64,000 nt of DNA from an uncultured Paraglaciecola sp. (GCA_947498355.1 CANMKA010000019.1:10222-74221), one strand, 5' to 3'; positions 10,054-46,379 are shown, numbered from the stretch's first letter. The notes: generated by a model from the sequence alone, not told the origin. Numbers and translations: made by a program.

Positions 10054-13000
10054 ATGCAAAAAATTAATAGTAGATTTACATTTTTGATACGTCCTATTAA
10101 CAGACAAGTCAGTAAGACGTTAATAGTGCTAAATTTATTATTCTACTGTTTAGTGTTATCCGAAGTAAAAGCAGCGGAAGCGGATCAGGTTAATGCAGAG
10201 TATGATTTTAATATTCCACAACAACCACTTAGTGTATCGCTAAATAAATTGTCTGATATTGGTAAAATATCATTCCTATTTCCTTATGACCTTGTTGTAA
10301 ACAAAACTGGTCGTTCAGTGAGAGGCCGCTTTACGGTTCAACAAGCACTCGATGTGCTTTTGGCCCAAAGTAACCTTAAAGGTGAACTGTCAGACAAACA
10401 GGCTTTTATTATTAAGCCCATGTCTGCGACTGATAACAAAAACAACTTAGGTAACACCAATATGACAACTAAGAAAACCCTTCTTGCTTCTATGATGGGC
10501 TTAATGTTTGCGTCTTCGGCAAATGCTCAAGCTCCCGAGTCAGCTAAAACAACAGAACAAGAACCCGAGCGCATTATTGTAACGGGTGTATTCAAATCAT
10601 CGAGTGAAGATGGCTCCGCAGTAGCCGTGTCGAGCATAGGCGAAGAGACCTTAAGACGCACGATTGCCGTGAGTACCGCAGATGTGTTGAAGGACATTCC
10701 TGGCGTGTTCGTCAATACCGCCCTAGGTGAAGTGCGCAACATTGTGTATTCACGAGGCATATCAGCGAACTCTCTTGATGGCAACAACGGCTACTTTTAT
10801 GTGTCTATGCAAGAAGATGGTTTGCCAGTGCAAAACGCCATCATGACAAATTTTGGTCCAGATTTGTTTTTTCGGGTCGATTTGATGACCAAACGTGTCG
10901 AAGCCGTAAGAGGCGGTGCTTCTGCGATTACCGGAGCTAACGCCCCCGGCGGCATATTTAACTATTTAACAAAAACCGGGGCATCTGATCCAGGTACCAT
11001 CATCAGTGCCAGACTAGGCAGCGAAGGGGGCGAATTTGGCAACCCTTATTACCGTACCGATTTCTATCATGGCAGGCAGATTAACGATAACTTGTCATTC
11101 GCAGTAGGTGGATTTTATCGAGATGGCACGGGCCCTAGAGATCCTGGCTACTCAACCAACCGAGGCGGCCAAATACGCGCTAACGTCTTGTACGAATATG
11201 ACAATGGCTCGATACAATTCAATTATAAAAACCTAAATGATCACAATATTTGGGATGAGTTTTTACCTGTTGAGGGTTTACGCAATCCACGTCCTTTGGG
11301 CCAGTTCGATTTTAATAGTTCGGTCAATCCCTCGCGTGTTCCTCATACATTTAGAGCCCTCGATAGCCGTCAATATTTGCCCGGCACCTTAACCGACACA
11401 GATCACTGGGATCCAAAGAATCTGATCCACAACACATCTCAAACTTACAGCGTAAGTATTCAACATGATCTGAACGACTCTTGGTCTATTGAGAATAAGT
11501 TCAAACGCTCAGAAAACAATTCGGACTGGAACACAGGTGCTGCAATCTTTGCCATGGGCATTGATGTAGCAGGAATATACGGGCCAGCTCCTTTTGGTAA
11601 TGGCATACTGGCTGTAGGCGTAACCGGTGAAAACGGCTTTGAACCATACGACGGAACCCTTTCGTTTAGCGACAATGCGGGCAACCAATTGGCCCAAGTC
11701 AGTGCGTTAAATGGTGAATACACTGTGTTATCTTCTAGCCTACCCGACGACCCAGCCCTTCCCAATGCAATACTGGTTCAAACCGCTTTTGCACCAGAAA
11801 CGGGTGCCGATGAATTTATTAACCAATTCACCCTAAGTAAAGAATTGGACGATATGGCATTTTATTTTGGTAATTTCTACTCCGAGTCCAAGCTTTATTG
11901 GCGCAGCGGTGAAGGCGGTACAGGGTTAAGCCAATTCACCCCTGAACGCGAAATGCTAAATATCACCATAGAACGACCCGATGGTACGGTACAACAAGTG
12001 ACATCTCCTGACGGCTTTGCTGGAGAAGGCCGTATTGGTGCATTTCAAAACTTTGCGAGCCTTGCAGAACAAGAGCAAATTTCATTCTTCTTCGGACATA
12101 CATGGGATATTTCAGAGCAATGGAACCTCAACTGGGGGCTGCGCAGCGAGCGGATCACAGTTGAAGGCAGTAACCAAGTTGCCAGCCAGTTTACCGACGA
12201 AACAGGTGGCATAGACGGCGATCCAAACACCTTATACGACAATACCATTCAGTCACTCGGCTTTCCGGTTCGATACAAACGTACCTTTAACTCTGTCGGC
12301 TTCTCTGGCGCCTTGACCTACAGATGGAATGACAACCAATCGACCTACTTCCGGTATTCAGACAGTGAAAAAGCCCCCAGTGTTGCAGCATTTGTCGACC
12401 CGGGTGCAGGCGTAAACGACGGCTTATTTGTGCCTCAGTCAGTGCTGCAAATTGAAGTTGGCCATACTATTTCGGCGAAAGACTATCGCCTTGTATTAAC
12501 GCCATTTTATACAGAACTAACCGACATAGGCGGCTTTGGTTCACCGGTACAATTTACCGATACCGATGGCACCACTTATCTGCCCCCTTCTCTGTTATCA
12601 GCAATTGAAACCTTCGGGATTGAAATCGAAGGACACTACAATCTAACAGACAAATTCAAACTTAATCTAAGCACTACGCTACAAGACTCCACCAGCACAG
12701 ATAATGCCGCTTGGCGTTCAACTGAGCCCGGACGAGCCGACGATTTCATTGAATTCTTTGAAGACGGAGATGCTGCTAATACCGCCAAATTCCAAGGTGC
12801 GTTGACGGGAACCTACACAGAGCAACAATGGAGCGCATTTGCCACCATTCGTCATTTAGGCGATCGTCCAGCCAATGCCAACAACACCTTCGATTTACAA
12901 GGTTTTACCACTATTGACATAGGTGCGACTTACTTCGTCAATGACAACGTAAGGCTCAACCTCAACGTTAATAATCTGACTAATGAACACGGTGTAATGA

Positions 13001-13125
13001 GTTGGCAAGGCGCCGGTGACTTTAGTGGTTTAGACCGCAGTATCAGTCCAAGAAACGAATTATGGAGTGTGGTGCAACAACAACCTAGATCTATATTCGT
13101 GACCGCAACCTATAGCTTCGAGTAA
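10054..13125 (+). CDS. TonB-dependent receptor with N-terminal STN signalling domain (FecA-type transducer)
   Basis: 1023 aa. STN-like segment at aa ~50-120 (FNIPQQPLSVSLNKLSDIGKISFLF...ALDVLLAQSNL), plug start ERIIVTG, long beta-barrel. Confidence 0.9.
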   Translation: MQKINSRFTFLIRPINRQVSKTLIVLNLLFYCLVLSEVKAAEADQVNAEYDFNIPQQPLSVSLNKLSDIGKISFLFPYDLVVNKTGRSVRGRFTVQQALDVLLAQSNLKGELSDKQAFIIKPMSATDNKNNLGNTNMTTKKTLLASMMGLMFASSANAQAPESAKTTEQEPERIIVTGVFKSSSEDGSAVAVSSIGEETLRRTIAVSTADVLKDIPGVFVNTALGEVRNIVYSRGISANSLDGNNGYFYVSMQEDGLPVQNAIMTNFGPDLFFRVDLMTKRVEAVRGGASAITGANAPGGIFNYLTKTGASDPGTIISARLGSEGGEFGNPYYRTDFYHGRQINDNLSFAVGGFYRDGTGPRDPGYSTNRGGQIRANVLYEYDNGSIQFNYKNLNDHNIWDEFLPVEGLRNPRPLGQFDFNSSVNPSRVPHTFRALDSRQYLPGTLTDTDHWDPKNLIHNTSQTYSVSIQHDLNDSWSIENKFKRSENNSDWNTGAAIFAMGIDVAGIYGPAPFGNGILAVGVTGENGFEPYDGTLSFSDNAGNQLAQVSALNGEYTVLSSSLPDDPALPNAILVQTAFAPETGADEFINQFTLSKELDDMAFYFGNFYSESKLYWRSGEGGTGLSQFTPEREMLNITIERPDGTVQQVTSPDGFAGEGRIGAFQNFASLAEQEQISFFFGHTWDISEQWNLNWGLRSERITVEGSNQVASQFTDETGGIDGDPNTLYDNTIQSLGFPVRYKRTFNSVGFSGALTYRWNDNQSTYFRYSDSEKAPSVAAFVDPGAGVNDGLFVPQSVLQIEVGHTISAKDYRLVLTPFYTELTDIGGFGSPVQFTDTDGTTYLPPSLLSAIETFGIEIEGHYNLTDKFKLNLSTTLQDSTSTDNAAWRSTEPGRADDFIEFFEDGDAANTAKFQGALTGTYTEQQWSAFATIRHLGDRPANANNTFDLQGFTTIDIGATYFVNDNVRLNLNVNNLTNEHGVMSWQGAGDFSGLDRSISPRNELWSVVQQQPRSIFVTATYSFE

Positions 13126-13155
13126 CCTGCTACGCGGTCAATCACGAAAATGAGC

Positions 13156-13187
13156 AAAAAGCCAAGGCCTAAACCTTGGCTTTTTTA
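13156..13187 (+). terminator. Rho-independent terminator after the receptor gene
   Basis: AAAAAGCCAAGG-cctaaa-CCTTGGCTTTTTT. Confidence 0.75.
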
Positions 13188-13427
13188 TTTATTCTGGGCC
13201 CATTACCTAAGCATTTAAATGCGAGTAATAAAAGCTGTCAAAATGCCCCAGCTTATGGAATTCTGATAACAACAGTGAGTCTGAAATAACCCTAGTATCA
13301 GGGCATATAATATTAATCTGGTCCACCAAAGTTGCTTGAACATGCTGTCTTTCTAGCAAGCTTTTCAGGGTAAATGCAACCCTTTCAATAGCTATTAACT
13401 TATCGATATCGATCCTATAAATAACTA

Positions 13428-16400
13428 TTACATCCCTCTGTTTTTCTTAAAGTTCTCTGCTTGTGCAAAAATCTCTTTATACACTTCGTCTCGGCTTACT
13501 GGAGGGTAGCCAAACCTGGCGAGTAACATAATTAAGTCAACTTTTAGTTCAGCTTTAATGTCGTCACGGTTATTCCAGTCTGTGTACTTAGCCTTATCGT
13601 CAACTACCTCTTTTACTGCTTGAGCAAGCTCAATTAATTTATCTTCTGGGTAAGTAAAGTCATACTTAACAGCTAACGATTTTAAAATATCGTAAAAGGC
13701 TTTTTCTTCAAAGCTAATACCCAAGTCATCGTTAGCGTCCATCTCGGATTTAAGGTCGGTAAACATATTGATAATTTCATCAGAGAAGTCTTCAAGCACG
13801 TCACTTACCAATACATCGTCTTCTTTGCGCTCGTTGTATTTATCAACTAACGCTTTAAAGCGTTTGGTAAAATCTATTCCCTGAGCAAGGTTGACCTTTT
13901 TCATTTCCTCAATGGCTTTAGCTAGCATTTTTTGCAATAGCATTATCTTGGTATTGGGCAGTTTTATCTTGCCGATTTTGGCAAGATAGTCTTCATCAAA
14001 AATATCAATCTCACCATCGTCATTGCCAAGTTTGAATATTTCCTCTACCCCATCACTTTTAAGCGCCTCTGCAATCATTTCTCGCACTTTTGCGTTCATT
14101 TGCGAAGTGTCAGGTGCTTCACCTTTGGTTAACTTGTAGATGATAGATCGCACAGCAAGGTAGAAGTGAATATAGTCGCGTTCTTGCTGAGATAGTTTCT
14201 CGCTGCCACAACAAACATCATAAGCCGCTTTTAAACGCTTAACTAAGGCCATAAAGCGTTTCTCAATTTTGCCAACAGATAATACAAATTCAGCCGCATT
14301 ATTTAAGCAATTTAACTGCGCTACTGGCTCGCCAGTGAAATAAGGCGAGGAATCGAATTGGTGGAAAATCCGAGAAAGTAAATCGAGGTGATCTTTAACC
14401 GCAATAACCGACTGATTGATATCTTCAAAGTTAGCTTCTTCTGACTTTGAGAACTGCGCTAGCGCTTTATTCATCGCCGTTTTAATACCGATGTAATCAA
14501 CCACTAAACCTTTATGCTTGCCTGAAAATTTACGGTTAACACGGGAAATAGTTTGAATAAGATTATGTTTTTGCAGTGGCTTATCAATGTAAATCGTATC
14601 AAGAAACGGCACATCAAAACCGGTAAGCCACATATCTACGACAATTGCGATTTTAAAATTAGATTGATCGTTCTTAAACTGCCTGTCTAAATCTTTACGA
14701 TACTCTTTAGTACCCAGTAAGTTATACAAGGCTTCTGGATCATCTTTGCCACGTGTCATAACCATTTTGACACGCTCCATCGGTTTGATTTTCTTCTTCT
14801 CTTGTTCGCTTAACGTAGAGCCTTTCTCGCATTCAAGCACCTCAAACCATTCGGGTCGAAGCTCTTCCAGCTCTTGATAAAACAAATATGCAATTTCACG
14901 AGAACTAGACACAAACATGGCTTTACCTTTTATGGTTGAGCCTTCATTAATGCGCGCTTCATAATGTTCAACAAAATCTTTCGCCAGTGTGCATATACGG
15001 TCAGGGTCGCCCAATATCGAGTTCATACTCGACGTGGCTTTTTTACTTTCTTCTATTTGATGCTCATTACTACCCGAATCTTCACATTGCTTGTAATAGG
15101 CTTCTATTTCTTCAAGCTTGGCATTGTTGAGTAATACTTTTGCCGCACGGCCTTCATAAACAATACGCACCGTTATTTCATCTTTAACCGACTCTGACAT
15201 GGTATAAGCATCAATAACCTTACCAAATACATCTAACGTGGCGTCAATAGGCGTACCCGTAAACCCCACAAAGGTCGCATTAGGTAATGAGTCATGTAAA
15301 TATTTTGCAAAGCCATAAGTGCGCCTTACGCCAGCATTAGGGCCCGTCTCGGTTATCACTACCTTTTGGTCTAAATTAACTTGGCTGCGGTGTGCCTCAT
15401 CTGAAATACAAATAACGTTAGTACGCTCAGTAAGTAGCTCAATATCTTCGGTAAATTTATGAATGGTTGTTAAAAATACACCACCACTTTGTCGGCCTTT
15501 AAGTAGTTGTCTTAGTTGTTCGCGGCTTTCAACACTAACAATATGGTCATCGCCAATATAGCTTTTAGCGTTAGAAAACTGCTGCGATAACTGATCATCT
15601 AAATCGGTTCTGTCGGTAATTAAAACAATGGTTGGGCTTTCAAACTCAACGCTTTTCATTAATAGCCGCGATAAAAACTGCATGGTAAAGCTTTTACCAC
15701 AGCCCGTTGCACCAAAATACGTTCCGCCTTTACCGCTGCCGCCCTCAATACGGCCATCAGCAGTAATTAACTTGCGCTCTTTTTTAATATTATTAAATAG
15801 TTTCCGCGCTGCGTAATACTGCGGGTATCGGCACACTATTTTCACTTCACCTTTTGATTTATCAGGGAAGTAAATAAAGTTACGAATAACATCACACAAA
15901 CGTTTTTTATCAAACAAGCCCTGCAACATAGTGTGTAAGCCATTAATGCCATCTTGCTCTATTGATTCATCACCCGAAATTTTTCGCCATGCATAATAAA
16001 AATCATAGGGCGCAAACACATTGCCCATTTTATTATTTACACCATCGCTAATAACGCACAGTGCGTTGAAAACAAATAACTGGGGAATATCGCGGCGGTA
16101 ACGAATGGTTAATTGTTCATAGGCATCATGCAGTGACGCTTGTTCTTCGCGAATAGCGCTTTTAAATTCAAACACCACAACAGGTAGGCCGTTAATGTAC
16201 AAAATACCGTCAGGAATACGTTTAGAGTTATCAGCCAGTGGGCTTTCAATCTCTAACTGGGTAACCATTTTAAAAATATTGTGCTGTGTTGTGGCAACAT
16301 AAGGGATGCTTGCCTCAGCGACCATAGGTAACGCTTCATCTAACTCTTGAGCAACGGCTACTTCTTCGCTGTTTACTTGGTCATAATTAATTAGCTGAAT

Positions 16401-16745
16401 ATATAAATCTTTTTTAGACGCTTCGCCCGGCTTACTGCCCGCTTCACGTTTTAATAAAAAGCCATCACTTAACCATTTACAAAAAGTTTTATTACTTTGG
16501 TATAAGTCACCTATAGGCAAGGTTTCGAGCTGTAAAATAATGCTATCTATTTCACCTGTGGTGATGTCATCAGCCGCGTAACGATTAGCTAAATAAGCGC
16601 GTAAGTCAGCTTTAATGAGCACTTGTTCTGGTGAACGAATTAGCTCAGCACCTGAGGCATACGGATACCCTTGCTCACCCAGTAACTCTATAATAGCTGC
16701 TTCTAATTGTGCTTCTGTAAACTTCACTATTCTATTACCTTCCAA
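13428..16745 (-). CDS. hsdR: Type I restriction enzyme R subunit
   Basis: 1105 aa. Walker A GATGCGKS, DEAH box (ISDEAHRSQ), helicase motifs, typical C-terminal helical domain. Confidence 0.95.
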   Translation of the reverse strand: MEGNRIVKFTEAQLEAAIIELLGEQGYPYASGAELIRSPEQVLIKADLRAYLANRYAADDITTGEIDSIILQLETLPIGDLYQSNKTFCKWLSDGFLLKREAGSKPGEASKKDLYIQLINYDQVNSEEVAVAQELDEALPMVAEASIPYVATTQHNIFKMVTQLEIESPLADNSKRIPDGILYINGLPVVVFEFKSAIREEQASLHDAYEQLTIRYRRDIPQLFVFNALCVISDGVNNKMGNVFAPYDFYYAWRKISGDESIEQDGINGLHTMLQGLFDKKRLCDVIRNFIYFPDKSKGEVKIVCRYPQYYAARKLFNNIKKERKLITADGRIEGGSGKGGTYFGATGCGKSFTMQFLSRLLMKSVEFESPTIVLITDRTDLDDQLSQQFSNAKSYIGDDHIVSVESREQLRQLLKGRQSGGVFLTTIHKFTEDIELLTERTNVICISDEAHRSQVNLDQKVVITETGPNAGVRRTYGFAKYLHDSLPNATFVGFTGTPIDATLDVFGKVIDAYTMSESVKDEITVRIVYEGRAAKVLLNNAKLEEIEAYYKQCEDSGSNEHQIEESKKATSSMNSILGDPDRICTLAKDFVEHYEARINEGSTIKGKAMFVSSSREIAYLFYQELEELRPEWFEVLECEKGSTLSEQEKKKIKPMERVKMVMTRGKDDPEALYNLLGTKEYRKDLDRQFKNDQSNFKIAIVVDMWLTGFDVPFLDTIYIDKPLQKHNLIQTISRVNRKFSGKHKGLVVDYIGIKTAMNKALAQFSKSEEANFEDINQSVIAVKDHLDLLSRIFHQFDSSPYFTGEPVAQLNCLNNAAEFVLSVGKIEKRFMALVKRLKAAYDVCCGSEKLSQQERDYIHFYLAVRSIIYKLTKGEAPDTSQMNAKVREMIAEALKSDGVEEIFKLGNDDGEIDIFDEDYLAKIGKIKLPNTKIMLLQKMLAKAIEEMKKVNLAQGIDFTKRFKALVDKYNERKEDDVLVSDVLEDFSDEIINMFTDLKSEMDANDDLGISFEEKAFYDILKSLAVKYDFTYPEDKLIELAQAVKEVVDDKAKYTDWNNRDDIKAELKVDLIMLLARFGYPPVSRDEVYKEIFAQAENFKKNRGM

Positions 16746-17734
16746 TGGCCTGTTTTGGCAGAGCCAACACGTTCAATATAGTTATTGTCTTTCAGTACTT
16801 TGATATGTCGTTCGATGGTTCGCAACGACTTTGTTAATTGCATTGCCAACGCTTGAATTGTAATGCTGGGGTGTTCTTGTATTTGTAACAAAATCGATTG
16901 CTGCAGTTTTGATTGTTTTACCCCGTCATTTATACCGACATTTACACCGACATTTACTCCGTCATTTTGACTTGAACTACTGGTGTTTATTGCATCAAAA
17001 ATCATTTGTAACATAAACTCAATAAATGGCGACGAATCCGTGCGTTCTGTACTTTTTCGAATGGCTAAATAATAGTCTGACTGGTGTTGGTGCACTACGC
17101 TTTCAACAGGAATATTAATAAACACATCATGCCATTTTGACAAGATCAAGGTTTGCCACAAACGCCCCATACGGCCATTGCCATCATCAAAAGGATGAAT
17201 AAATTCAAATTCGTAGTGGAACACACAACTTGCAATTAAAGGGTGAACATCTGTTTTTGTAAGCCAAGTCAATAATTGTGTAATTAACATGGGTACACGG
17301 TCTGCTTGTGGCGCCATATGTACAACTTTATCGCCCGACATAACCCCAGCCCCTTTACAACGAAACATCCCCGCTTGTGCAACCAAACCTGTCATTAATA
17401 CCCTGTGGGCGGCCAGTAAGTCGTCGGTTTTTGTTGGCTGCCACTGACGAATAACGTCATAAGCGGCAATTGCATTATGGGCTTCTTGCACTTCTTTTGG
17501 TGGAGCAATCACACGCTTGCCATCAAGTATTGCGGTGATCTGCTGTTCTGTCAGTGTATTTCCTTCAATCGCCAACGAGCCTTTTACCGTGCGCATGCGA
17601 TTTACTTTACGTAAAAGCAATAACTTTTCGTGCTCCGCTTGTACCGTTAAACGCCCAATCGCTTCGCTAATTTGAGCAACCAATGTTAAGGTTTTATTGG
17701 TTAGCGTAAATGGAGGAATATAATCACTTGTCAT
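16727..17734 (-). CDS. Fic-family protein (N-terminal Fic_N-like, Fic core, C-terminal winged HTH)
   Basis: Canonical Fic motif HPFDDGNGRMGR. Inhibitory-helix-type motif SLAIEGN ([ST]xxxE[GN]). C-terminal HTH (ITIQALAMQLTKSLRTIERHIKVLKDNNYIERV). 19-nt overlap with the hsdR start. Confidence 0.9.
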   Translation of the reverse strand: MTSDYIPPFTLTNKTLTLVAQISEAIGRLTVQAEHEKLLLLRKVNRMRTVKGSLAIEGNTLTEQQITAILDGKRVIAPPKEVQEAHNAIAAYDVIRQWQPTKTDDLLAAHRVLMTGLVAQAGMFRCKGAGVMSGDKVVHMAPQADRVPMLITQLLTWLTKTDVHPLIASCVFHYEFEFIHPFDDGNGRMGRLWQTLILSKWHDVFINIPVESVVHQHQSDYYLAIRKSTERTDSSPFIEFMLQMIFDAINTSSSSQNDGVNVGVNVGINDGVKQSKLQQSILLQIQEHPSITIQALAMQLTKSLRTIERHIKVLKDNNYIERVGSAKTGHWKVIE

Positions 17735-17744
17735 GTTATTACCC

Positions 17745-19178
17745 TTAAAAACACGCAGGGAAATGTGTTTTTAATAGCTTCATCATATTACGTTTGGCTT
17801 TATGTTGTTTGACGACTTGGTTTATCATCACCTGTAGCGCCTCGGTATGTGCATCTTGCAGTTTATTTTCTAGGCGTAGCAATAAATCAGTAGCCTGTTG
17901 ATAGGCTCGATTGTTACCTTGGCTAATGGTTGATAGCACAACACGCGCATATAAATCGATAGCTTCTTGTGGGTGTTCGCCAACAATTAAATCAGCTAAT
18001 TTAAGCAGCTTACTCGGTTCTGCTTTATGTGATTTTACCCATAAACGAGCTTGGGCTACTTGTTGATGATAAAGGTAAAAGCTTAATAGTGCATCCGCCT
18101 CTCGCACAATGCCCCCGTAGCTATTTTCGGCATAACATTGGGTAAAAATACGCTCGACTTTTTCTTTACATTTTTCATCAATTACCCCTGTTTTTTGTTC
18201 AAGTGTCATTAACGCTTTGTAACCCGAAAAACTAGGCGTTTGGCTAAAGAGTTGCCACGCCAACTGCCATGCTTGCTGATATTCTTTTAACGCAAGGCGC
18301 AACTCGACTTCAAATTTTCGACAGTTTATTTTATTAGCGTCTTTTTTTATCACGCTATAGGCTTTTTTTAACCAATATTCAGCGTCTAAGAGCTCACTGT
18401 GTTCAAGGCAAAGCTGCGCAATTTTAAGGTGATCGCTCTCGTCATAAGCTGACATGGCCATTAAATGGCATTGCGCGGGTAAGTCCTTGTTGTTTTTTGC
18501 CTGTTCAATTTGCGGCTTAAGCAAACGCTCAAAGGCATACTTTTCTTTCCACATACTCAAATCAAGCCCTTGCTTGAGGCGTTGTTGTGCCTCTGCTTGG
18601 CATAAACCGACAAAAATATCGGTCACGGACGCTGTTAAATTAAAGTCTTCTGGCACACTTGGAAAAACATCGTATTTATACGCTTTATAATGCTCAAATA
18701 TCCATTGAGCCTTTTCATCGTCAGACCAAGTTTGCTGATTAAACAAGATACTTAACCGACGGTTTAATTGCCTCTCTAAATCAAAACGGTAACCGCCAGA
18801 ATCATCTACATGCTCTAGCACGGTATTTAACCGAACAAGCGCATGTAAGGTCAGTTGCCATTGTTTATCAATCGGTAATTGTTCGATAGCCGTAAAAATA
18901 TCAACAAACATATTATCGCTGTGATGAAAGTAGGCGCGAGCCTCGGCATAACCCCAAACTTGCTTTTTTGGTAACGCTTTGGTGATCATTTTTTTGATTT
19001 CACCGCCACTTAACCCACCTTGATCGTTTAACATAGCAAGCTGCCAACGGCTTTGTTCATCGGCGGACTCACCAATATAATTTAGAATAATGTCGCTGAG
19101 CTCATCAACCGACTTTTGGTTAAACCAGATTTTTAGCTGGCTCATGATAGGGTGTTCATCGTCGTTATAAGTTTTCAT
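17745..19178 (-). CDS. Hypothetical 477-aa protein, predicted all-alpha / helical repeat, no family recognised
   Basis: Long uninterrupted ORF packed 17 nt after hsdS and 10 nt before the Fic gene. No catalytic motif recognised by eye. Confidence 0.75.
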   Translation of the reverse strand: MKTYNDDEHPIMSQLKIWFNQKSVDELSDIILNYIGESADEQSRWQLAMLNDQGGLSGGEIKKMITKALPKKQVWGYAEARAYFHHSDNMFVDIFTAIEQLPIDKQWQLTLHALVRLNTVLEHVDDSGGYRFDLERQLNRRLSILFNQQTWSDDEKAQWIFEHYKAYKYDVFPSVPEDFNLTASVTDIFVGLCQAEAQQRLKQGLDLSMWKEKYAFERLLKPQIEQAKNNKDLPAQCHLMAMSAYDESDHLKIAQLCLEHSELLDAEYWLKKAYSVIKKDANKINCRKFEVELRLALKEYQQAWQLAWQLFSQTPSFSGYKALMTLEQKTGVIDEKCKEKVERIFTQCYAENSYGGIVREADALLSFYLYHQQVAQARLWVKSHKAEPSKLLKLADLIVGEHPQEAIDLYARVVLSTISQGNNRAYQQATDLLLRLENKLQDAHTEALQVMINQVVKQHKAKRNMMKLLKTHFPACF

Positions 19179-19195
19179 GATAAAAATGCTTCTGC

Positions 19196-20683
19196 CTAGG
19201 CCTTAGTTTTATTGTGGTCAGCGGGCAAAGTTAATTCGCCTGAGATGAGTTTGGGTAATAAAACATCTCTAGTGTAAGTTAACGTATTACTTTGTTTTAT
19301 ATTGTCAGTTATTTTCTCATACTGAGTTTTGACAATGCTGGTGTAGTCATCAACAATTAGTTTGGTTGGAACAATCAGCTTAATACTTCTAAAAGTCTTC
19401 TTACTGATCTCTGAAAACGTTGTACCTCCTGAAATGCCCTTAATTTCATCCATCACAGAGTCTAAAAATTGTATAGTGTATTCGGGTGATAAAGTTTTCT
19501 TGCACAGTAAAGCAATATAACCTTGGTTAATTGCAACGGGAACTTTAGCTAAGGCTAAATAGCCAACAGGTGCTCTTGAAGACATTAACACCGTACCTAC
19601 TGGCAGCAAACCTGATGTAATTTTTGCTAAGCCTGCTTGAGTAATTTTACGGTTTGTATCTAACAATATTTTTGAGTCATTACCTGATAGATCTTTTGGT
19701 GATGTCCAGTATATTTCACCACCATCCCAAAAATCTGGATTTTTCGTACTAGGTGTTGAACCACCTTTAATCTGAAACTCATCACCAGTATTTGATAAAA
19801 CCCAACCTTTAGGTATCCAGCCGTTGATGCCGATTGATGGCTCGTCAGTTTGTTCAAATTCGCTTGGGAAGAGTTGGTGCCATTGTTCGCTTGCGTTAGC
19901 GGCTTGGGGGAGTGGTTTAGCTTCCGCTTTTTTATCGGCTGAGAGTTTTTTATGTGCTGAAGGCTCTTCATTAGCCATTTGTTGTTGCACTTGTAATCGT
20001 TGCGCGGCTTTTTTCTGTAAGGCTTCTGGGAAGTCGTTAACCGACATACCGCTAGCAAGGGCGTTGTCGAAAACAGGATCAAAATCGACAAACCAGCTTT
20101 TAAATAACGCTTGCGCCATGTGCTCTAGGGTTTGGTTAGTTTGACGGTTTAGTTCTATTTTTTCATCTAACCTCATTAAGATACCTGATATTCCCTTCTG
20201 CTCAGCAATATCAGGATATGAAATCGTTAAGCGACCAATCATCTCATTATTCAAGCTCGCACGAGTAGACATCGTTGAAAAAGATAGCATTTTCTGTCTA
20301 AATAAGGGACTTCTTAAATAATAGCCAACGTACTCAGGGTGCAATACTTTATCTGTCTCAATCTTTGGTCTTAGTCGCTTTGTAAAACCATTGAAAGTTG
20401 CTCCAGGATAATCTTTAAGTGCGACACTACTCATCCCTAGTTCATGCATTGTCTCACTTGTTCGGGTAATAAAAACATCTCCTTTTTTAACCGAACATTT
20501 AATTCGCTCTTTGTCCTCAGATTGAACCAACTGTTCTAGTTGACGAGGCAAAAATGTGTTTTTAAACACGTCTTTGAAAGACAAAAACGGATGTCCTTGC
20601 CCAAAAAACTTTGCCGACTTAGACAAGCCTGAGCTTACATCATAAAGCTTAAGTAATGACGTTTCAGACCAATTACTCCCCAT
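19196..20683 (-). CDS. hsdS: Type I R-M specificity subunit
   Basis: Two target-recognition halves separated by a conserved helix (LEHMAQALFKSWFVDFDPV). C-terminal conserved helix (RDVLLPKLISGEL). ATG overlaps the upstream ORF stop. Confidence 0.9.
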   Translation of the reverse strand: MGSNWSETSLLKLYDVSSGLSKSAKFFGQGHPFLSFKDVFKNTFLPRQLEQLVQSEDKERIKCSVKKGDVFITRTSETMHELGMSSVALKDYPGATFNGFTKRLRPKIETDKVLHPEYVGYYLRSPLFRQKMLSFSTMSTRASLNNEMIGRLTISYPDIAEQKGISGILMRLDEKIELNRQTNQTLEHMAQALFKSWFVDFDPVFDNALASGMSVNDFPEALQKKAAQRLQVQQQMANEEPSAHKKLSADKKAEAKPLPQAANASEQWHQLFPSEFEQTDEPSIGINGWIPKGWVLSNTGDEFQIKGGSTPSTKNPDFWDGGEIYWTSPKDLSGNDSKILLDTNRKITQAGLAKITSGLLPVGTVLMSSRAPVGYLALAKVPVAINQGYIALLCKKTLSPEYTIQFLDSVMDEIKGISGGTTFSEISKKTFRSIKLIVPTKLIVDDYTSIVKTQYEKITDNIKQSNTLTYTRDVLLPKLISGELTLPADHNKTKA

Positions 20684-21302
20684 AACCCAACACCTCCAAG
20701 TTTTGACGAATCGCTTTATCTAGCGTTTCTGCCTGCTCTACCTGACCGTACAACATTCGGTTTATGCAAAAAGGGTTACTCATAGTCGGCCGCCTTACTG
20801 GCTTTGTTTTTTGCTGTGCTTCTTGCTCAACTGGCTGTTTCTCTTTACTAGCGAGCAAGCGTTCATAGTAAAGCGTGCCTATTTGCCGCTCTAGTGCGCG
20901 TATACTCCAATTTTGTTGGTCTGCTTCTTTCATGTACCACAAACGGGCGTTTGGATTTGCAATGGTAATAAGCTTTGAATAGTGCGACCAACTCAATTTG
21001 GCAGACACTGTCTGCCATTTAGGAAAGGCGATATAAAAGGCGCGCATATTGCGTAAGTTTCTACTTGAAAAGCCTTTATCAAATTGTGTGCTTAATTGCT
21101 TAGAAAGTTGCTGTAATTGTGCCTTGCCGTATTCGGCTCTGCTTTTACCTTGTTGCTCATCTTCAACAATTAACTTTCCGATATGCCAATAGGCTTGCAC
21201 CATTTCGCTATTAACAGTTTGTTTTACCTGCCCTCTGGCTTGTTCAACAATTTGTTTTATGTCTAGTAATAATTGATGGTTAGCAGATAAATTATTTGCC
21301 AT
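20673..21302 (-). CDS. Truncated DUF1016/YhcG-like gene (N-terminal domain only) with a tail copied from hsdM
   Basis: aa 1-~165 look like the DUF1016 N-terminal domain (YWHIGKLIVEDEQ...LSWSHY...NWSIRALERQI). No PD-(D/E)xK nuclease half. The last ~25 aa (EQAETLDKAIRQNLEVLGYGE) duplicate the HsdM C-terminus. Confidence 0.6.
   Translation of the reverse strand: MANNLSANHQLLLDIKQIVEQARGQVKQTVNSEMVQAYWHIGKLIVEDEQQGKSRAEYGKAQLQQLSKQLSTQFDKGFSSRNLRNMRAFYIAFPKWQTVSAKLSWSHYSKLITIANPNARLWYMKEADQQNWSIRALERQIGTLYYERLLASKEKQPVEQEAQQKTKPVRRPTMSNPFCINRMLYGQVEQAETLDKAIRQNLEVLGYGE
20681..20745. repeat. Direct repeat copy A (hsdM 3'-end-like sequence abutting hsdS)
   Basis: CATAACCCAACACCTCCAAGTTTTGACGAATCGCTTTATCTA...TTCTGCCTG, about 80-85% identical by eye to 21301..21365. 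Confidence 0.8.
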
Positions 21303-22923
21303 AACCCAACACCTCTAAGTTTTGGCGAATGGCTTTATCTAATTCTTCTGCCTGTTCCATTTGGCTGTATAGGGTTTGGCTGAGTTCTTTCATTTTGACT
21401 TCAAACGGGATGCCGTCATCTTCAATTTCAGCTGCGCCCACGTAACGCCCTGGGGTTAGTACATAATCATTGGCTTTAATGTCATCAAGTGATGCGGATT
21501 TACTATAACCGGCTTTGTCTTGGTATATTGGGAGATTCCCGCCTTCGCGGGAATGGCTCGATGAAGAACGCCATGCGTGGTAAGTGCGAGCGATTTCGGC
21601 AATGTCATCGGTGGTGAGTTCTTTGTTGGTGCGGCTGATCATGGTGCCCATTTCGCGGGCATCAATAAATAGCGTTTCACCTTGGCGGTTACGGTATTGT
21701 GGCTGTCCTTCTTTTTTGTTTTTCCCGCTTTTATCTTTAGTCAAAAACCATAAACACACCGGAATTTGTGTGGTGTAGAAAAGCTGCCCCGGTAAGGCGA
21801 TCATACAATCGACTAAGTCTTGTTCGATAATTTTTTGGCGAATTGCGCCTTCACCGCCCGTATTTGAGCTCATAGAGCCATTGGCTAATACAAAACCTGC
21901 GGTGCCGTTTTCACTTAGCTTTGAGATCATGTGCATGATCCACGCGTAGTTAGCATTACCTGTTGGCGGCACATCAAACCCCGCCCAGCGGCCATCGTCT
22001 ACTAATTCGCTATCGCTACGCCATTGTTTTTGGTTAAACGGTGGATTCGCCATAATAAAATCGGCTTTTAAGTCTGGGTGTTGGTCTCTAAAGAAACTGT
22101 CACCAGCCACTTCACCTAAGTTGCCTGAAATACCCCGCACGGCTAGGTTCATTTTGGCTAGCTTGTAGGTGGTGTTGGTGTATTCCTGACCATAAATGGA
22201 AATGTCTTTACGGTTGCCTTTGTGGCTGTCGATAAACTTAAGCGACTGCACAAACATACCGCCTGAGCCACAACATGGGTCGTAAATTTTGCCTTTATAG
22301 GGTTCTATCATTTCGGCAATTAGGGCAACGACTGATTTTGGCGTATAGAATTCACCACCGCCTTTACCTTCGCTTGAGGCAAACTTACCTAAAAAGTATT
22401 CGTAAACACGACCCACTAAATCTTCTTCGGTCATTTCACATTCGCTAGCGGCGGTGTCGATGTTATTAATGGTATCGATAAGTGACGCAAGCTTACTAGT
22501 AACTAGCCCTAAACGGCTAAAGTAGTTTTCTGGCAACGCGCCTTTTAGTGATGGGTTGTTTTTTTCGACGGTGTGCAGTGCGGTATCAATTTTTACGGCA
22601 ATGTCGTCTTGCTTCATGTTTTTTTGAATAAACGACCAACGGGCATCGATTGGTAGGTAAAATACGTTGTCTTGCATGTAGAATTCTACTTGGTCAACAA
22701 AATCGCCCATACCACCATCAATCAAGGCTTGGCGTTTATCTTCAAACTTATCACTGATAAATTTTAAGAAGATAAGGCTTAATACCACATGTTTGTACTC
22801 AGACGATTCAACACTGCCACGCAGTTTATTTGCGGTATCCCATAGGGTTTCTTCAAAGTTGGTATTTGTTGTTTTGCTTTTTTTGGTTGCTGGTTTATTA
22901 GTAGCTGATTTGGGGCTTGCCAT
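21292..22923 (-). CDS. hsdM: Type I R-M N6-adenine DNA methyltransferase subunit
   Basis: 543 aa. N-terminal HsdM_N-like region, SAM motif (DPCCGSGGMF), catalytic NPPF (ANPPFNQKQW). Confidence 0.95.
   Translation of the reverse strand: MASPKSATNKPATKKSKTTNTNFEETLWDTANKLRGSVESSEYKHVVLSLIFLKFISDKFEDKRQALIDGGMGDFVDQVEFYMQDNVFYLPIDARWSFIQKNMKQDDIAVKIDTALHTVEKNNPSLKGALPENYFSRLGLVTSKLASLIDTINNIDTAASECEMTEEDLVGRVYEYFLGKFASSEGKGGGEFYTPKSVVALIAEMIEPYKGKIYDPCCGSGGMFVQSLKFIDSHKGNRKDISIYGQEYTNTTYKLAKMNLAVRGISGNLGEVAGDSFFRDQHPDLKADFIMANPPFNQKQWRSDSELVDDGRWAGFDVPPTGNANYAWIMHMISKLSENGTAGFVLANGSMSSNTGGEGAIRQKIIEQDLVDCMIALPGQLFYTTQIPVCLWFLTKDKSGKNKKEGQPQYRNRQGETLFIDAREMGTMISRTNKELTTDDIAEIARTYHAWRSSSSHSREGGNLPIYQDKAGYSKSASLDDIKANDYVLTPGRYVGAAEIEDDGIPFEVKMKELSQTLYSQMEQAEELDKAIRQNLEVLGYGK
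21301..21365. repeat. Direct repeat copy B (authentic hsdM 3' end)
   Basis: CATAACCCAACACCTCTAAGTTTTGGCGAATGGCTTTATCTA...TTCTGCCTG. Spaced ~620 bp from copy A. Confidence 0.8.
21535..21554. repeat. REP-type palindrome inside hsdM (ATTCCCGC-CTTC-GCGGGAAT)
   Basis: Perfect 8-bp stem with a 4-nt loop. Translated in frame as HSREGGN within AWRSSSSHSREGGNLPIYQ. Confidence 0.8.
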
Positions 22924-22946
22924 GCAAATTCGTCCTTTTAATATTC

Positions 22947-23819
22947 TTACTTTTCTAATTGATAACCCGGCGCTATTGCGAGGTTTTCAGCACCATATAA
23001 GGTTTGTGTATTGCGCAGGTGTAACTGGTACTCTGCCCCTTTTAGGCTGGCATCTTGTGTACAATCCACATTCCAACGTCTTAATAAATAGCCCGCCATT
23101 GCTGCTCGTACATTGATTTCAAGTACACCATTTTCCATACCAAAATCGAGCTCAATTGCTGTTGGGTGCTCTACATTGTTTGGATGGGGGATAACGTGTA
23201 ACGGCACCATGCGCATCCATTGGTGATCTTCTAACTTATCTTCTTCTGGTAGTCTTGTCTGTTTGAGAATGGTTACTTTGGTAATGCGGGTTAACACAAA
23301 GTCTCTGAATGACTTTGATTTGCGATCATACGCTCTTACATGCCAACGTAAGCCATTATCGACTATTGAATGAGGTACTAATTCTCTAGCACCCGAACCG
23401 CTGGTTAAAGACGTATATATCACGTTAATAGGTTTATGGTTGACAATTGCTTGAGATAGCTTAGCGATAATATCAATATCAGGTACGTTTAACGGGCTGG
23501 GCGATTCAATAGGGAATGATGTATCACCAATCGAATCAAAGCCATCGCTAATATTATTGGCTAACTTGATAAGAGTACGGCGAGCATCATGTTTAAATAT
23601 GGGCTTGAATTGCGTTGTGATGAAGTATTTTTTCTCTACGTTGTCATACGCCATATTCTCAGGAGCATTATCTTTGTAGAACTTTAAGTCTCTGGTTGCT
23701 GCTGCTAGGCCTAATTCGAAGTGGCTGACTATTTCGCTGCGCGTTACCATCCCAGTAAAATAGAGCTTAAAGTCGATATAAGCTAAGCGCTGCTTCTGTG
23801 CAAAACTGAATTCGTCCAT
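22947..23819 (-). CDS. WYL-domain transcriptional regulator (HTH-WYL-WCX, BrxR/CapW-like)
   Basis: 290 aa. N-terminal wHTH-like region (QRLAYIDFKLYFTGMVTRSEIVSHF). WYL-type core (VPHSIVDNGLRWHVRAYDRKSKSFRDFVLTRI). 23 nt upstream of hsdM on the same strand. Confidence 0.75.
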   Translation of the reverse strand: MDEFSFAQKQRLAYIDFKLYFTGMVTRSEIVSHFELGLAAATRDLKFYKDNAPENMAYDNVEKKYFITTQFKPIFKHDARRTLIKLANNISDGFDSIGDTSFPIESPSPLNVPDIDIIAKLSQAIVNHKPINVIYTSLTSGSGARELVPHSIVDNGLRWHVRAYDRKSKSFRDFVLTRITKVTILKQTRLPEEDKLEDHQWMRMVPLHVIPHPNNVEHPTAIELDFGMENGVLEINVRAAMAGYLLRRWNVDCTQDASLKGAEYQLHLRNTQTLYGAENLAIAPGYQLEK

Positions 23820-24039
23820 TCGATAATTCTGATCCTATTGACATGTTTCATTAGCGTTTAAAGACTATGTCTCATTATGAGTCTGACAGCAAATAAATTT
23901 TATGCTTTGGTGTTGATATAGGTCATTATTATTCAATGCGTTCAAGTTTATGTGGTGACTCAGGCGCTAAGTAAAAAGACATTTATCAGGCTTACTATGC
24001 CCATGGCTCCCCTTTCTCTAGACAAGAAAATGCGCCACA

Positions 24040-24345
24040 AGATTGGATTCCAGATCAAAAGCCCTCTGGAATGACGAGGTGTAGGGTTGTTAGTCATATA
24101 CTGCTGGAATGACGGGGGTTGGGATTATTAGTCTTTTACCACTGATAATGGCGGGAAAGGGACGCTTGACGGTTTTGCTTTTTGCTTGTCTTGCCCCTAT
24201 TCACTCTCCTATCCACTGTTTCTTTTTGCTCTTCTTGCTCCTATTTACTATCTCCTATCCACTGCTCTTACTGCTCTTATCTGCATTTACCCAAATATTA
24301 GGGCGGCACGCAACATGTCTATTCGCAATCTAGCGTGTTGCCCTA
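24040..24345. repeat. Composite REP-like element (hairpin module plus CT-rich tail), same family as the 46.4-47.3 kb array
   Basis: GGATTCCAGATCAAAAGCCCTCTGGAATGACGAGG...GTTAGTC, then a second CTGGAATGACGGGGG...TTAGTC, then CT-rich CTTGCCCCTATTCACT / CTCCTATTTACTATCTCC. Ends in a long imperfect hairpin at ~24298-24347. Confidence 0.75.
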
Positions 24346-24365
24346 ATTGTTTGAACTGCCAAAGG

Positions 24366-27300
24366 TTACATATCAATTAACCTAACTGGCCCTTTCAAGC
24401 CAGACGTTTGCAGTACTTTGGCCTTGTCTTTGGCAAAAAAGTTGTAGCCAGTAAAGGTTACTCGCTGACTTTTAGGTGGCGGCTGATTTGCGTTTAACCA
24501 AGGTACAGTATCACCTACCATGCTGTAACCACTCGTATCAGGCAGGGCTTCATCACCTATGAGTCGATTAACCCAATTGTTGGTAATTGCAATCTCAAGC
24601 TTATTCTCGCCTTCAACTATGGCTGAGCGTATATCCAATGCAAAAGGAGGCTTCCATAAGGTTGGGAAGGCCTTGCCATTGATTGTCACTTGGGCGACTT
24701 GCTGAACATCACCTAAGTCTAGGTACAAAGGCCCTTTCTTGGACGCTGCCCTAGGGGGTAAATTAAACGCTTTATGGTAAGTGGCCGTGCCCGAATAGTG
24801 CTTTATGGCTGGATTGGGATGATCGATCCAGTCTAAAAGTGAATCAAATTCGACTTGCTCTGGCCCTTGCCACTTAGGGTCAAACTTCACTTGCCAAGGG
24901 CCTTCTAGCTGCGTCCCTTGATTCGCATACACATGTTTTACCAGTTGAGAATGGGTGCCCGTGTACTCAGGCGGCTGACCATCACGTCGAATTAATACAA
25001 AACGTCCTGCGAAGGGTTCGAGGGCTAATTGGGTGAGCAGCCTGCTACCATCACGACGATAGCCAGACAATTGCTCTACGCTGCCATCATCTATATTCCA
25101 AATTTCGGGTTGGCCATCGCCATTTCGAATATCGACTTCTAGTTCGACAAATTCAGGTTGGTCGTTGTAAAAATAATACAAGTCATTGTCACCAATACGC
25201 CTATGAGCAAAGAACTTTGCCGGCTGCCCGTTTAATTTCAAATCAGCTTGATATGCCAATTTATCAATACTCTCAGTTAAGGACCAACTGCTAACCAAGC
25301 CCTTTTTATAGGGGCGTATTTGCGGCGAGCCATCAGCCCAAAGCGTATCGGCAATCTTGGCAAATTCGACCTTTTGAGACCACTCACTATACCCAATTAT
25401 ATGTTTAGGCTTGGCCCCAATAACGGTTGCTCCAGCTGCAACCAATTGTTCAATACGCTGCAAGGTTTTGAGATGTAAATATTCGGTTTTATTTAATTCT
25501 AACGCCCGATAACGGGTACCTTCGGGTAACACTAGCCAACCATCTTTTACACTAATTCGATTGAGCAGCACGTCTGTGTTGGTGTAGTCGTAGCCAAAGC
25601 CATCGGGTACACCCGTATTATTAGCATTCCCAACTCTAAGAGGTGCAACATCGCCAAGGTGAATCAAAAAATCAGCATCTGGCACGCCTTGCTGTAACAA
25701 ATACGAGCCACGCGCGAGATAGTCAAACCAAGCCACTCCGCTGTTATTCCACCAAGTTTGAGTACGATCGATATGCGAGCCAATGGAGTCCATTGTCATA
25801 CCGGGTTTAATATGGTTATTTGGCTGATGAGCAAAACGATGGAACATGGTTTCGTTAATACCACGGGCCCACATTTTATCACCATAATGTTTATAAAAGT
25901 AGGGGTGCCCGTACCAATTAACCGTGCGAATGGAGGTAAACGATTCGGCTGAGATTATCTTTTTGCCATAGATGTGGCCAGACGATATGGCGGCCGATAC
26001 CCGACCATTATAAACCTGATCTCGCACCCAAAATTCGCCCATTAAGCGGTCGGCCTGACCTCCCGCTTTTAGTTCGTCAAACGGCCCCCATCCATAAGGC
26101 TCAATATATGACTCCAAGCCATATTGTTTGGTCAGTCGAGTAAATTCAGCAAAATAATTATCGACCATTAAATCGGATAAATGTTGTCGATATTCCTGCA
26201 AAATAGCCCCTGTGTGGGCGGGAGACTCAATGACTCGGCCTGTTAATAAAGGCAACCAAGGAATAAAGTCATAATTAAACTTTTGCGCAAAGCTCTTATC
26301 TATATTTTGCGTCCAGTTTTGTCCACCGACTTCGTAACTATCAATTTCGGTGGTTTTAAACGACTTTATTCCTTCGGCTTGCACTTTTCGTAGGAGCTTG
26401 CCTACGTATTGTTCAAAATGGAACTGCAATGCTTTTGCATCAAACTTATCAACCTCTAAGCCTTCGCCTTCAACGGTTGCTGGTACGTTAAACGCGCCCG
26501 TACTGGTGTAACCAAACCGAAGTAATCTCCAATCGCCTTCAGGCACAGTAATGCCTGCCTTGGGCAGTGTTCCTCGGTTGAGAACCTTCACATCTTTGGC
26601 TTTAATTACAGCTTGCTCGGCAATGGTCGGCGCCATGCTCAACCTGCCTCGCTCCATTGAGTTCATTGATAACCAATGGTCCATTCTGGGCACAGACCAC
26701 AAATCAAAGCGCTTCAGAATAATCGGTTTATCAAACACAAAGCGGAAATACTTAGCAGTAAAACCGTCTTGTTGATCATTCACCAACTGGGGACTGAAGG
26801 CCCACATTCTTGCGCCAGTTCGAGGACGCCTTAACTTTTCGACCACAGTTGTAAAGGTTTCTCCATCGTTTGATATTTGCAGCGCGCCGTCGCCATGTCT
26901 GGTCGGCGTTTCTATTTGTAAACTGCGCAACGTTGTAGGCTTTTCTACTTCTACCTGGATCCAATATTGACCTTCACTGGCTTTACCTTTTTTAGGTTTG
27001 GCATCAAAACCACCTGTGGTGGCATCCTCTTTGCTCTGCGCCGTAAATAAAAACTCGGTATCCCAATCTTTATCCGCCAGCACATTGGCATTTAGCTCAG
27101 GGTTAGAAGAAGAAAACTTTGCGTTGGCAAACGCATTACTTTGATTATATTGATTAGCAGGTAGGGCGATCACAGCTACATCGTGATATAAACCCTCGGC
27201 GTAACCAGGTTGAGGTGGGAGCACTGTTTGTCCACCTTTGACCGCCAGCTCTGACCAAGTGATACGTTTCATCGACATCTCAGGTGTCACCCAAGGACCG

Positions 27301-46280: not shown

Positions 46281-46379
46281 CCCGCGTTAAATAGCCCGTT
46301 CAACGCGATTAATTTGGTATGACTGATGCTAATGGAATTTGTATTTTTTAGGAAGAGCCAATGGGTAACTTAATTCATT

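Follow-up and report, generated by a model that had tools for sequence, protein, structure and literature searches.

A PDC-S62-family helical protein beside a class II Fic enzyme in a type I restriction-modification operon of Paraglaciecola: a possible facultative cassette

A stretch of 64,000 nucleotides from an uncultured Paraglaciecola sp. (GCA_947498355.1, CANMKA010000019.1:10222-74221), called the window below and giving the coordinates used unless another locus is named, carries on its minus strand a type I restriction-modification (R-M) operon in which two additional genes, one encoding a 477-aa protein named X here and the other a Fic protein, are found between hsdS and hsdR. Open reading frame (ORF) calls and profile searches gave the gene order as BrxR/WYL regulator, hsdM, a DUF1016 remnant, hsdS, X, Fic and hsdR (Table 1), and the Pfam, PADLOC and NCBIfam searches agreed on the identity of the R-M subunits. 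In this BrxR-headed type I R-M operon the region serves as a cargo slot, occupied by a 2.4-kb two-gene cassette. An initial annotation, made from the sequence alone, had described two extra genes within the operon in a PrrC-type position, and both the ORFs and their placement between hsdS and hsdR were recovered as described; with the DUF1016_N remnant, which lies between hsdM and hsdS, the embedded genes number three. Among relatives of X, evidence was obtained for a preferential pairing with Fic genes, inside and outside R-M loci, and it is tentatively proposed that the two genes form a facultative mobile cassette in which X would regulate or target the Fic toxin.

Table 1. Features of the operon, with positions counted from the first letter of the window.
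Feature	Coordinates	Strand	Basis
BrxR-type WYL transcriptional regulator, first gene of the operon	22947..23819	-	Pfam WYL 1.1e-11; PADLOC WYL 7.6e-17
hsdM, type I methyltransferase	21292..22923	-	Pfam N6_Mtase 5.4e-109, HsdM_N; PADLOC MTase_I 2.5e-183
86-nt direct repeat copy 2, true hsdM 3′ end	21284..21369	.	Repeat search
DUF1016_N-only remnant, 209 aa (PADLOC PDC-S02)	20673..21302	-	Pfam DUF1016_N 6.6e-48; PDC-S02 2.6e-63
86-nt direct repeat copy 1, duplicating the hsdM 3′ end and flanking the DUF1016 insertion	20665..20750	.	79% identity to copy 2, spacing 619
hsdS, specificity subunit	19196..20683	-	Pfam Methylase_S 3.4e-32, two stretches
X, 477-aa all-alpha protein, predicted SWIM-less member of the SWIM+DUF6880 family (PADLOC PDC-S62)	17745..19178	-	PDC-S62 E = 5.8e-173
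X, conserved ITKALP (residues 65-70), near DDSGGYRF	18969..18986	-	Alignment
X, top-conserved motif DDSGGYRF (residues 125-132), inter-helix loop	18783..18806	-	Invariant or near-invariant columns
Fic, predicted class II AMP-transferase with C-terminal winged helix-turn-helix (wHTH)	16727..17734	-	Pfam Fic 2.9e-19; HTH_24 1.1e-06; PADLOC SoFic 3.7e-47; PDB 4rgl E = 1.4e-90
Fic, inhibitory-helix motif SLAIEG (residues 53-58), fitting [ST]xxxE[GN]	17561..17578	-	Aligned to the same motif in 4rgl
Fic, catalytic motif HPFDDGNGRMGR (residues 180-191), fitting HxFx[DE]GN[GK]RxxR	17162..17197	-	Sequence motif
Fic, wHTH (residues 276-324)	16763..16909	-	Pfam HTH_24 (276-321), MarR, HTH_11
hsdR, with HSDR_N, SWI2_SNF2, T1R_D3-like and T1RH-like_C	13428..16745	-	Pfam; PADLOC REase_I, 1317 bits
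Bidirectional intrinsic terminator closing the operon	13156..13185	.	13-pair stem then T run, after hsdR

The genes of the slot are closely packed. The gaps of 17 nt from the hsdS stop to the X start and of 10 nt between X and Fic, which had already been noted, were confirmed by the coordinates, and an AAGGG sequence was found upstream of the Fic ATG. The 19-nt overlap between Fic and hsdR given in the initial annotation holds if a TTG is taken as the hsdR start. The Catenovulum homologue of HsdR begins with MKFTEAQLE, and because the counterpart of this start maps here to a GTG at 16727-16725, it is probable that hsdR starts at 16727 and that the overlap is of 1 nt (aTAGTG) rather than 19 nt; the junction is tight with either start codon. 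No strong terminator was found within the operon, and an Rfam scan of 12000-25000 returned no RNA family.

The relatives of X were followed in a sample of about 160 loci, identified by the labels L001 and onwards, which comprised 72 genome loci, 80 metagenome loci and nine further places for one actinobacterial clade. The ORFs in this sample were called mechanically, a crude procedure, and were labelled with the proteins of the window and a small Fic profile.

The initial annotation had found the 477-aa protein to be apparently all-alpha and without an assignable motif. The first observation agrees with the AlphaFold2 model of X, which is entirely helical, with 24 helices and a predicted local distance difference test (pLDDT) score of 86.8, and the second was overturned by the profile search, in which residues 6-477 aligned to positions 99-566 of the 566 positions of the PADLOC PDC-S62 model PDLC05053 with 574 bits. 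Distant relatives of X also matched this model, and X itself gave no Pfam (E ≤ 0.01), NCBIfam, PHROG or PDB sequence match. The homologues of X fall into two length classes, one of 465-490 aa, which is X-like, and one of 560-600 aa, whose members add an N-terminal SWIM zinc finger (PF04434, CxC...CxH) and score on DUF6880 (PF21810). In homologues of about 51% identity to X the DUF6880 scores were 35.1 and 27.9 bits against a cut-off of 27.3, and X itself did not match this family at E ≤ 0.01. The N-terminal part of the profile, of about 98 positions, is missing from X, the SWIM finger with it, and there is no hidden finger upstream, since hsdS ends 17 nt before the X start. To judge from these alignments, X appears to be a SWIM-less member of the SWIM+DUF6880 / PDC-S62 family from which the finger was lost. 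In the SWIM region of two relatives (L029 and L054), about 90 N-terminal residues long, a weak PADLOC match to the N-terminus of DpdE, the helicase of the Dpd system, was also observed (E = 2e-8 and 3e-7).

The whole model of X retrieved only generic TPR/HAT solenoids with Foldseek, at TM scores of 0.2-0.35. Its best-conserved region spans residues 55-235 and includes ITKALP, RLNxxLExxDDSGGxRF and several invariant charged residues. The model of the N-domain, although predicted with a pLDDT of 94.9, had no structural neighbour at E < 0.4 in a fold search, so that neither an enzymatic fold nor a known binding fold was recognised. X is thus modelled as a non-enzymatic all-alpha solenoid or helical scaffold with a strongly conserved surface patch, and, lacking a catalytic fold, it would need an effector partner for any enzymatic output. 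The family is large, with 9,483 representatives (clusters at 50% identity) at E ≤ 1e-3 and 506 at E ≤ 1e-30, and its members are typically 560-590 aa long. Its matches in mobile elements were restricted to two weak ones in viral contigs and two weak ones in Burkholderia plasmids, so the family is not phage- or plasmid-borne. PDC-S62 was nominated by a study of "guilt-by-embedding" (Payne et al., bioRxiv 10.1101/2024.01.29.577857), in which genes lodged within BREX, DISARM and type I R-M loci yielded 145 predicted defence candidates. A literature search for PDC-S62 or DUF6880, made in one library of papers, returned no mention of either, a search on SWIM fingers together with Fic, anti-phage activity or type I restriction returned nothing relevant, and the paper on Marinomonas Mme2I deals with other embedded genes.

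The Fic protein presented the three features that had been ascribed to it, namely an intact catalytic motif, an N-terminal inhibitory-helix motif and a C-terminal wHTH. Because SLAIEG sits N-terminal to the Fic core, the protein is assigned to class II, and it is predicted to be an intact enzyme whose active site is obstructed in cis by the N-terminal inhibitory helix. The closest solved structure was 4RGL, with about 60% identity over residues 3-262, followed by FICD. The PADLOC SoFic model matched over residues 7-324, Shewanella oneidensis SoFic was retrieved in the PDB search at E = 5e-12 over residues 137-327, and the NCBIfam SoFic equivalog NF046030 scored 63 bits, below its cut-off of 550. 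Fic also matched PADLOC PDC-S04, which comprises R-M-embedded Fic candidates, and its subfamily is very large (at least 8,000 clusters at E ≤ 1e-30). The SoFic of Escherichia coli is toxic although it has a cis helix, and it is neutralised by AS1, a small protein encoded downstream (PMC12249575). A small AS1-like ORF downstream of Fic is absent at this locus, where hsdR already begins at the Fic stop codon or ahead of it. By analogy with the SoFic literature, Fic would be a growth-arresting AMPylating effector of the abortive-infection type. The possibility that X acts as a FicA-like antitoxin was considered and rejected, as X carries no [ST]xxxE[GN] motif.

Fic was the commonest non-R-M neighbour of the X family. 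Among 92 non-redundant flanking genes on the same strand, annotated with Pfam, there were 16 with Methylase_S, 9 with Fic, 5 with ResIII, 4 with HSDR_N and 3 with DUF1016_N, and every other domain occurred at most twice. An enrichment test was made on loci collapsed at 85% X identity (97 groups), with Fic counted if it had at least 150 aa. Fic was found at 10 of the 176 positions adjacent to X versus 5 of the 800 positions at least three genes away (odds ratio 9.6, Fisher p = 3.8e-5, in a test that corrects only partly for shared ancestry). Before collapsing, 18 of 29 Fic matches stood at ±1 of X. Nine of the 10 X-Fic pairs were on the same strand, seven of them with gaps of 3-108 nt and the other two with gaps of 164 and 255 nt. 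With X relatives grouped into 26 clades at about 40% identity, Fic occurred within two genes of X in seven and hsd genes, in that sample, in three.

The Fic partners were of at least five architectures, comprising the 4rgl-like form with wHTH, RhuM-Fic, DUF4172-Fic, Fic_N-Fic, which matched PADLOC SoFic at 3.5e-72, and a short form of 281 aa, and an in-cis [ST]xxxEG (SxxxEG) helix was found in most of them. This diversity looks like non-orthologous replacement of Fic with the arrangement kept. Three of the pairs (L054, L058 and L029) are flanked by genes for acetyl-CoA carboxylase, peptidase M20, TetR and Fe-alcohol dehydrogenase, and because of these housekeeping-type flanks they are regarded as two-gene islets outside R-M loci. 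The exact combination of X with a 4rgl-like Fic was found in few places: the window, L161 (GCA_947487775.1, 98% identical) and Catenovulum maritimum (L001), and probably also one Joint Genome Institute contig, in which an X homologue (P0009) and a Fic homologue (P0071) both have a longest contig of 13,944 nt.

As for the link with R-M genes, conservation beside hsd genes, on which the initial annotation depended, was borne out for the X family, which was embedded in type I R-M operons in about 25 of about 105 non-redundant loci, from two R-M families and two phyla. Across the sample, the most frequent position of X relatives was after hsdS. The order hsdM-(cargo)-hsdS-X-(cargo)-hsdR, with the same HsdR family, was observed in Catenovulum, Pseudoalteromonas, Psychrobium, Marinomonas, Colwellia, Psychromonas, Shewanella and Tolumonas. 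In actinobacterial metagenome contigs (L162, L163 and L166/L167) the order was hsdR(EcoEI_R_C)-hsdS-X-hsdM, with a 4-nt overlap between hsdS and X and a gap of 0-1 nt between X and hsdM. X therefore directly follows hsdS in two unrelated type I families and operon architectures and in two phyla. Most members of the family have no hsd gene within 7-10 kb. Some relatives belong to defence or toxin-antitoxin islands that also contain an OLD-like ATPase, AbiE, PIN-Phd, RloB/AAA_21 or MNT-HepT, and distant relatives of the Glaciecola type keep a conserved housekeeping synteny with isocitrate dehydrogenase, GH81, peptidase S9 and CheR/CheB. The co-conservation of X and Fic, which the initial annotation had named as a point to check, was not supported in the form of a fixed pair, even though Fic is enriched beside the X family: in hsd operons the gene after X may be nothing, DUF1016, DUF6933, RhuM-Fic or Fic, and X also occurs beside a deleted Fic.

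The operon and its relatives retain traces of the movement of such cargo. The 86-nt repeat duplicates the hsdM 3′ end on the far side of the DUF1016 insertion, and the C-terminus of the DUF1016 remnant therefore copies that of HsdM. L161, which is 98.4% identical to the window over 11.5 kb, and in which the orthologue of the first gene has the domains WHD_BrxR, WYL and BrxR_CTD, retains a complete DUF1016 (DUF1016_N + YhcG_C), whereas the window lacks about 517 bp corresponding to the YhcG_C nuclease domain. The target-recognition regions of hsdS (19284-19802 and 20171-20680) had no match in L161, and this difference looks like a recent specificity swap between the strains. In Marinomonas (L005), copies of hsdM-3′ and hsdR-5′ segments precede each inserted gene. 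The metagenome contig Ga0316204_10008598 (L076, 169-12796) carries a multi-cassette type I operon whose cargo includes DUF6119, Fic fragments, an Hsp90-like HATPase protein, X and a second Fic subtype; a duplicated hsdR-5′ fragment stands before each unit, one of them directly before X-Fic (Fic motif TAVIEG), and hsdR is split into three ORFs. In C. maritimum (L001 9918-13101, NZ_KQ130482.1), a 3.2-kb block composed of 65 nt of hsdS-3′, X, Fic and 650 nt of hsdR-5′ is shared with the window at 89% identity. There, hsdS and hsdR are truncated, the 5′ stump of hsdR being frameshifted, and X and Fic are intact, with dN/dS of 0.22 for X and 0.11 for Fic within the block. These duplicated segments, swaps and retained blocks indicate that cargo is exchanged by recombination through conserved operon junctions. 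In the clade of the window and L001, X-Fic appears to travel as a unit and to be maintained without its own R-M, and the purifying selection on the L001 pair beside truncated hsdS and hsdR argues against a strict dependence on the R-M system in which it is encoded.

The interpretation preferred here, to which a probability of only about 0.42 is given, is that of a facultative mobile X-Fic cassette with X as sensor or regulator and the Fic toxin as effector. X would be a protein-binding partner of Fic, acting as a sensor or adaptor that may hold Fic inactive, or that releases or targets it upon a phage cue. The pair would move between hsd operons as one block, recombining through the conserved hsdS-3′ and hsdR-5′ ends, and, co-transcribed with the R-M genes, would constitute a second defence layer not strictly dependent on its own R-M complex. 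The partnership would be facultative, as either family may also be found without the other. Several observations weigh against this interpretation. In about 88% of X relatives neither neighbour is a Fic gene (about 12% of loci are paired), none of the six sampled actinobacterial relatives has a Fic neighbour, and no X-Fic fusion was found among 120 Fic homologues or the top 150 X-family representatives. Close relatives carry in the same hsd slot X alone (L002, L004, L013 and L014), X with DUF1016 or X with DUF6933; L091 lacks the Fic found in the otherwise identical L090; and in Marinomonas L005 X is intact and Fic has been reduced by deletion to an 83-aa remnant. The close relatives of Fic are mostly standalone in other islands, beside a retron, TacAT or an integrase, or have an unrelated 431-aa protein before them in an hsd operon. 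SoFic, moreover, was reported to protect against phage by itself, as a single-gene system (Millman et al., bioRxiv 10.1101/2022.05.11.491447). To this are added the incomplete correction for ancestry in the enrichment test and the ascertainment of the loci through two conserved peptide patterns.

Several of these observations are shared by an explanation that is a serious contender, still short of even odds, in which X (PDC-S62) and Fic (SoFic-like) are independent passengers, separate single-gene defence or addiction modules that occupy the same recombination-prone slot and are adjacent because of a shared cargo habit. Both PDC-S62 and SoFic stand in PADLOC as systems of a single gene (bioRxiv 10.1101/2024.01.29.577857). 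The variable occupancy of the position after X, the differing presence of Fic among near-identical loci (L090/L091, and also L005), the standalone Fic relatives, the capacity of SoFic to work alone and the scars of piecemeal accretion, such as the 86-nt repeat and the repeated hsdR-5′ fragments, all point in this direction. However, the enrichment is specific to Fic, with a sharp peak at the immediately adjacent gene, and no other defence family recurs beside X; X-Fic islets occur among housekeeping genes, and X, as modelled, lacks an enzymatic domain through which it could act by itself. A third explanation takes up the PrrC-like idea of the initial annotation and makes X a type I R-M accessory that binds HsdS/HsdM or HsdR, for instance as a guard sensing anti-restriction proteins, with the Fic output being optional. 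The occurrence of X as the next gene after hsdS in two type I families that are unrelated and differ in gene order, the rank of HsdS as the commonest X neighbour overall (16/92), the weak resemblance of the SWIM finger of the full-length family to the N-terminus of DpdE and the occupation of the same slot by PrrC, which is mentioned in the preprint on embedding (bioRxiv 10.1101/2024.01.29.577857), are consistent with such a function. It is nevertheless considered unlikely, because most family members have no hsd gene in their vicinity, some clades lie in conserved housekeeping synteny, the L001 pair is under purifying selection despite the truncation of its own hsdS and hsdR, and the copy of X in the window has no SWIM finger; the ends of hsdS are, moreover, recombination hot spots, as the swap of recognition domains illustrates, and this could alone explain the position.

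A more elaborate form of this proposal would combine it with the X-Fic pair. In it, PDC-S62 solenoids would be sensors or adaptors that dock on the type I methyltransferase core, so that a phage disabling restriction would switch on the class II Fic AMPylase, amounting to a PrrC-like guard built from other parts; the docking is suggested by the position of the X gene right behind hsdS in two R-M families that are unrelated, and the scheme as a whole is held to be decidedly unlikely. The full idea of the initial annotation, which needs both the X-Fic pair and a link to R-M, is given the same low credence. It would be very improbable, finally, that X is a housekeeping or regulatory scaffold without a function in defence, whose presence in R-M operons is mere hitch-hiking. 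The conserved synteny of the Glaciecola-type relatives, the size of the family at E ≤ 1e-3 and its near absence from plasmids and viral contigs could be understood in this manner, but its repeated tight embedding in R-M operons of two phyla, its neighbours in defence islands (AbiE, PIN-Phd, RloB/AAA_21, MNT-HepT and the OLD-like ATPase) and its patchy distribution among close relatives, typical of accessory genes, are opposed to it.

The locus shares features with several known systems and departs from each of them. X matches the single PDC-S62 model and lies within a type I R-M operon, the kind of embedding by which that family was nominated; it differs in having no SWIM finger and in being paired with Fic, here and in about 12% of loci, whereas the catalogue treats the family as a single gene. 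Fic resembles SoFic and the class II Fic AMPylases (3EQX, 4RGL) in its HPFx[DE]GNGRxxR core, its in-cis N-terminal helix and its C-terminal domain of the wHTH type, but it is only distantly related to S. oneidensis SoFic, being closer to 4RGL instead, it has no AS1-like ORF downstream, and its gene stands behind X within an R-M operon. PrrC, from the EcoprrI locus, combines an ABC-type NTPase and an anticodon nuclease in one fused protein. The slot between hsdS and hsdR and the concept of a latent toxic effector co-expressed with R-M are common to PrrC and the cassette, but PrrC has no sequence or fold relation to X or Fic, which would be an alpha-solenoid and a Fic AMP-transferase; neither an ABC-ATPase-like nor an anticodon-nuclease domain was found in X or Fic with Pfam, NCBIfam or PADLOC, and the L001 locus speaks against a strict R-M dependence of X-Fic. 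In the class I Fic toxin-antitoxins (FicT/FicA and VbhT/VbhA) and in Doc/Phd, a Fic-fold toxin likewise stands beside a second gene, a possible controller. The inhibitory glutamate helix is, however, in cis in the Fic described here, and X, with 477 aa and no [ST]xxxE[GN], is no small antitoxin. BrxR/WYL defence islands share with this operon a WYL regulator with BrxR-type domains at the head, which in the window opens a type I R-M operon with cargo and not a BREX locus.

The presence of defence genes inside type I R-M operons was already described, as were the PDC-S62 family and defence by SoFic-type Fic proteins. The SWIM-less form of PDC-S62, the evidence for preferential pairing of this family with class II Fic and the consistent location of the family right behind hsdS in type I systems of two unrelated families are new. 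PDC-S62 is one of about 145 catalogued R-M-embedded candidates and is listed without a predicted activity. If the repeated and specific X-Fic pairing is true, two orphan observations would become one two-component system, made of a non-enzymatic binder and an AMPylating toxin, and SoFic-type enzymes would gain a concrete candidate partner; if the guard reading is true, the missing activation mechanism of the SoFic-type defence enzymes would be supplied. Should X and Fic be independent, the locus would be merely another R-M operon with catalogued passengers. In the locus and its relatives, the entry of cargo into type I R-M operons can also be followed to the nucleotide, with hsdM-3′ and hsdR-5′ duplications flanking the cassettes and the hsdS recognition domains swapped between strains that are 98% identical.

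Some further arrangements were observed among the relatives of X and Fic. In L155 (5527-7001) the order is BrxR-DUF6933-hsdM-hsdS-...-Fic-hsdR, and the place of X is taken by an unrelated familyless protein of 431 aa together with a 63-aa PDC-S11 fragment; the 431-aa protein was considered as a diverged X and rejected (BLASTP E = 0.31, no PADLOC match), and the DUF6933 protein of this locus matched PADLOC PDC-S63. In C. maritimum, the block with X and Fic is directly followed by a second operon, XRE-WYL-hsdM-hsdS, with further cargo (proteins of 351 aa and at least 842 aa). Two X-family paralogues, of 592 and 494 aa, stand side by side in L021 (9647-13102), followed by a YhgA-type transposase, and another two lie within 5 kb in an AbiE/PIN-Phd island in L168 (4001-9743). 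It was also considered whether the SWIM proteins are partners of SNF2 helicases, which was rejected as a rule: the large neighbours of X relatives were mostly of housekeeping type, namely GH81, CheB/CheR, AcrB, formate dehydrogenase-like and WS/DGAT proteins, and only L006 (SNF2) and L064 (ResIII) fit such a partnership.

Outside the operon, a FecR-like sensor (386 aa) and a TonB-dependent receptor (1023 aa) are encoded at 8893-13125, convergent with hsdR and sharing its terminator. They are ordinary flanking genes, kept in L161, which adds an extracytoplasmic function (ECF) sigma factor. An intergenic repeat family was found at 24039-24291, just upstream of the operon, and at 46369-47154, where a tandem array of a 228-nt unit (2.7 copies, 94% matches) occupies 46534-47154; related copies are also in tandem in L161 (919-1592 of that locus).

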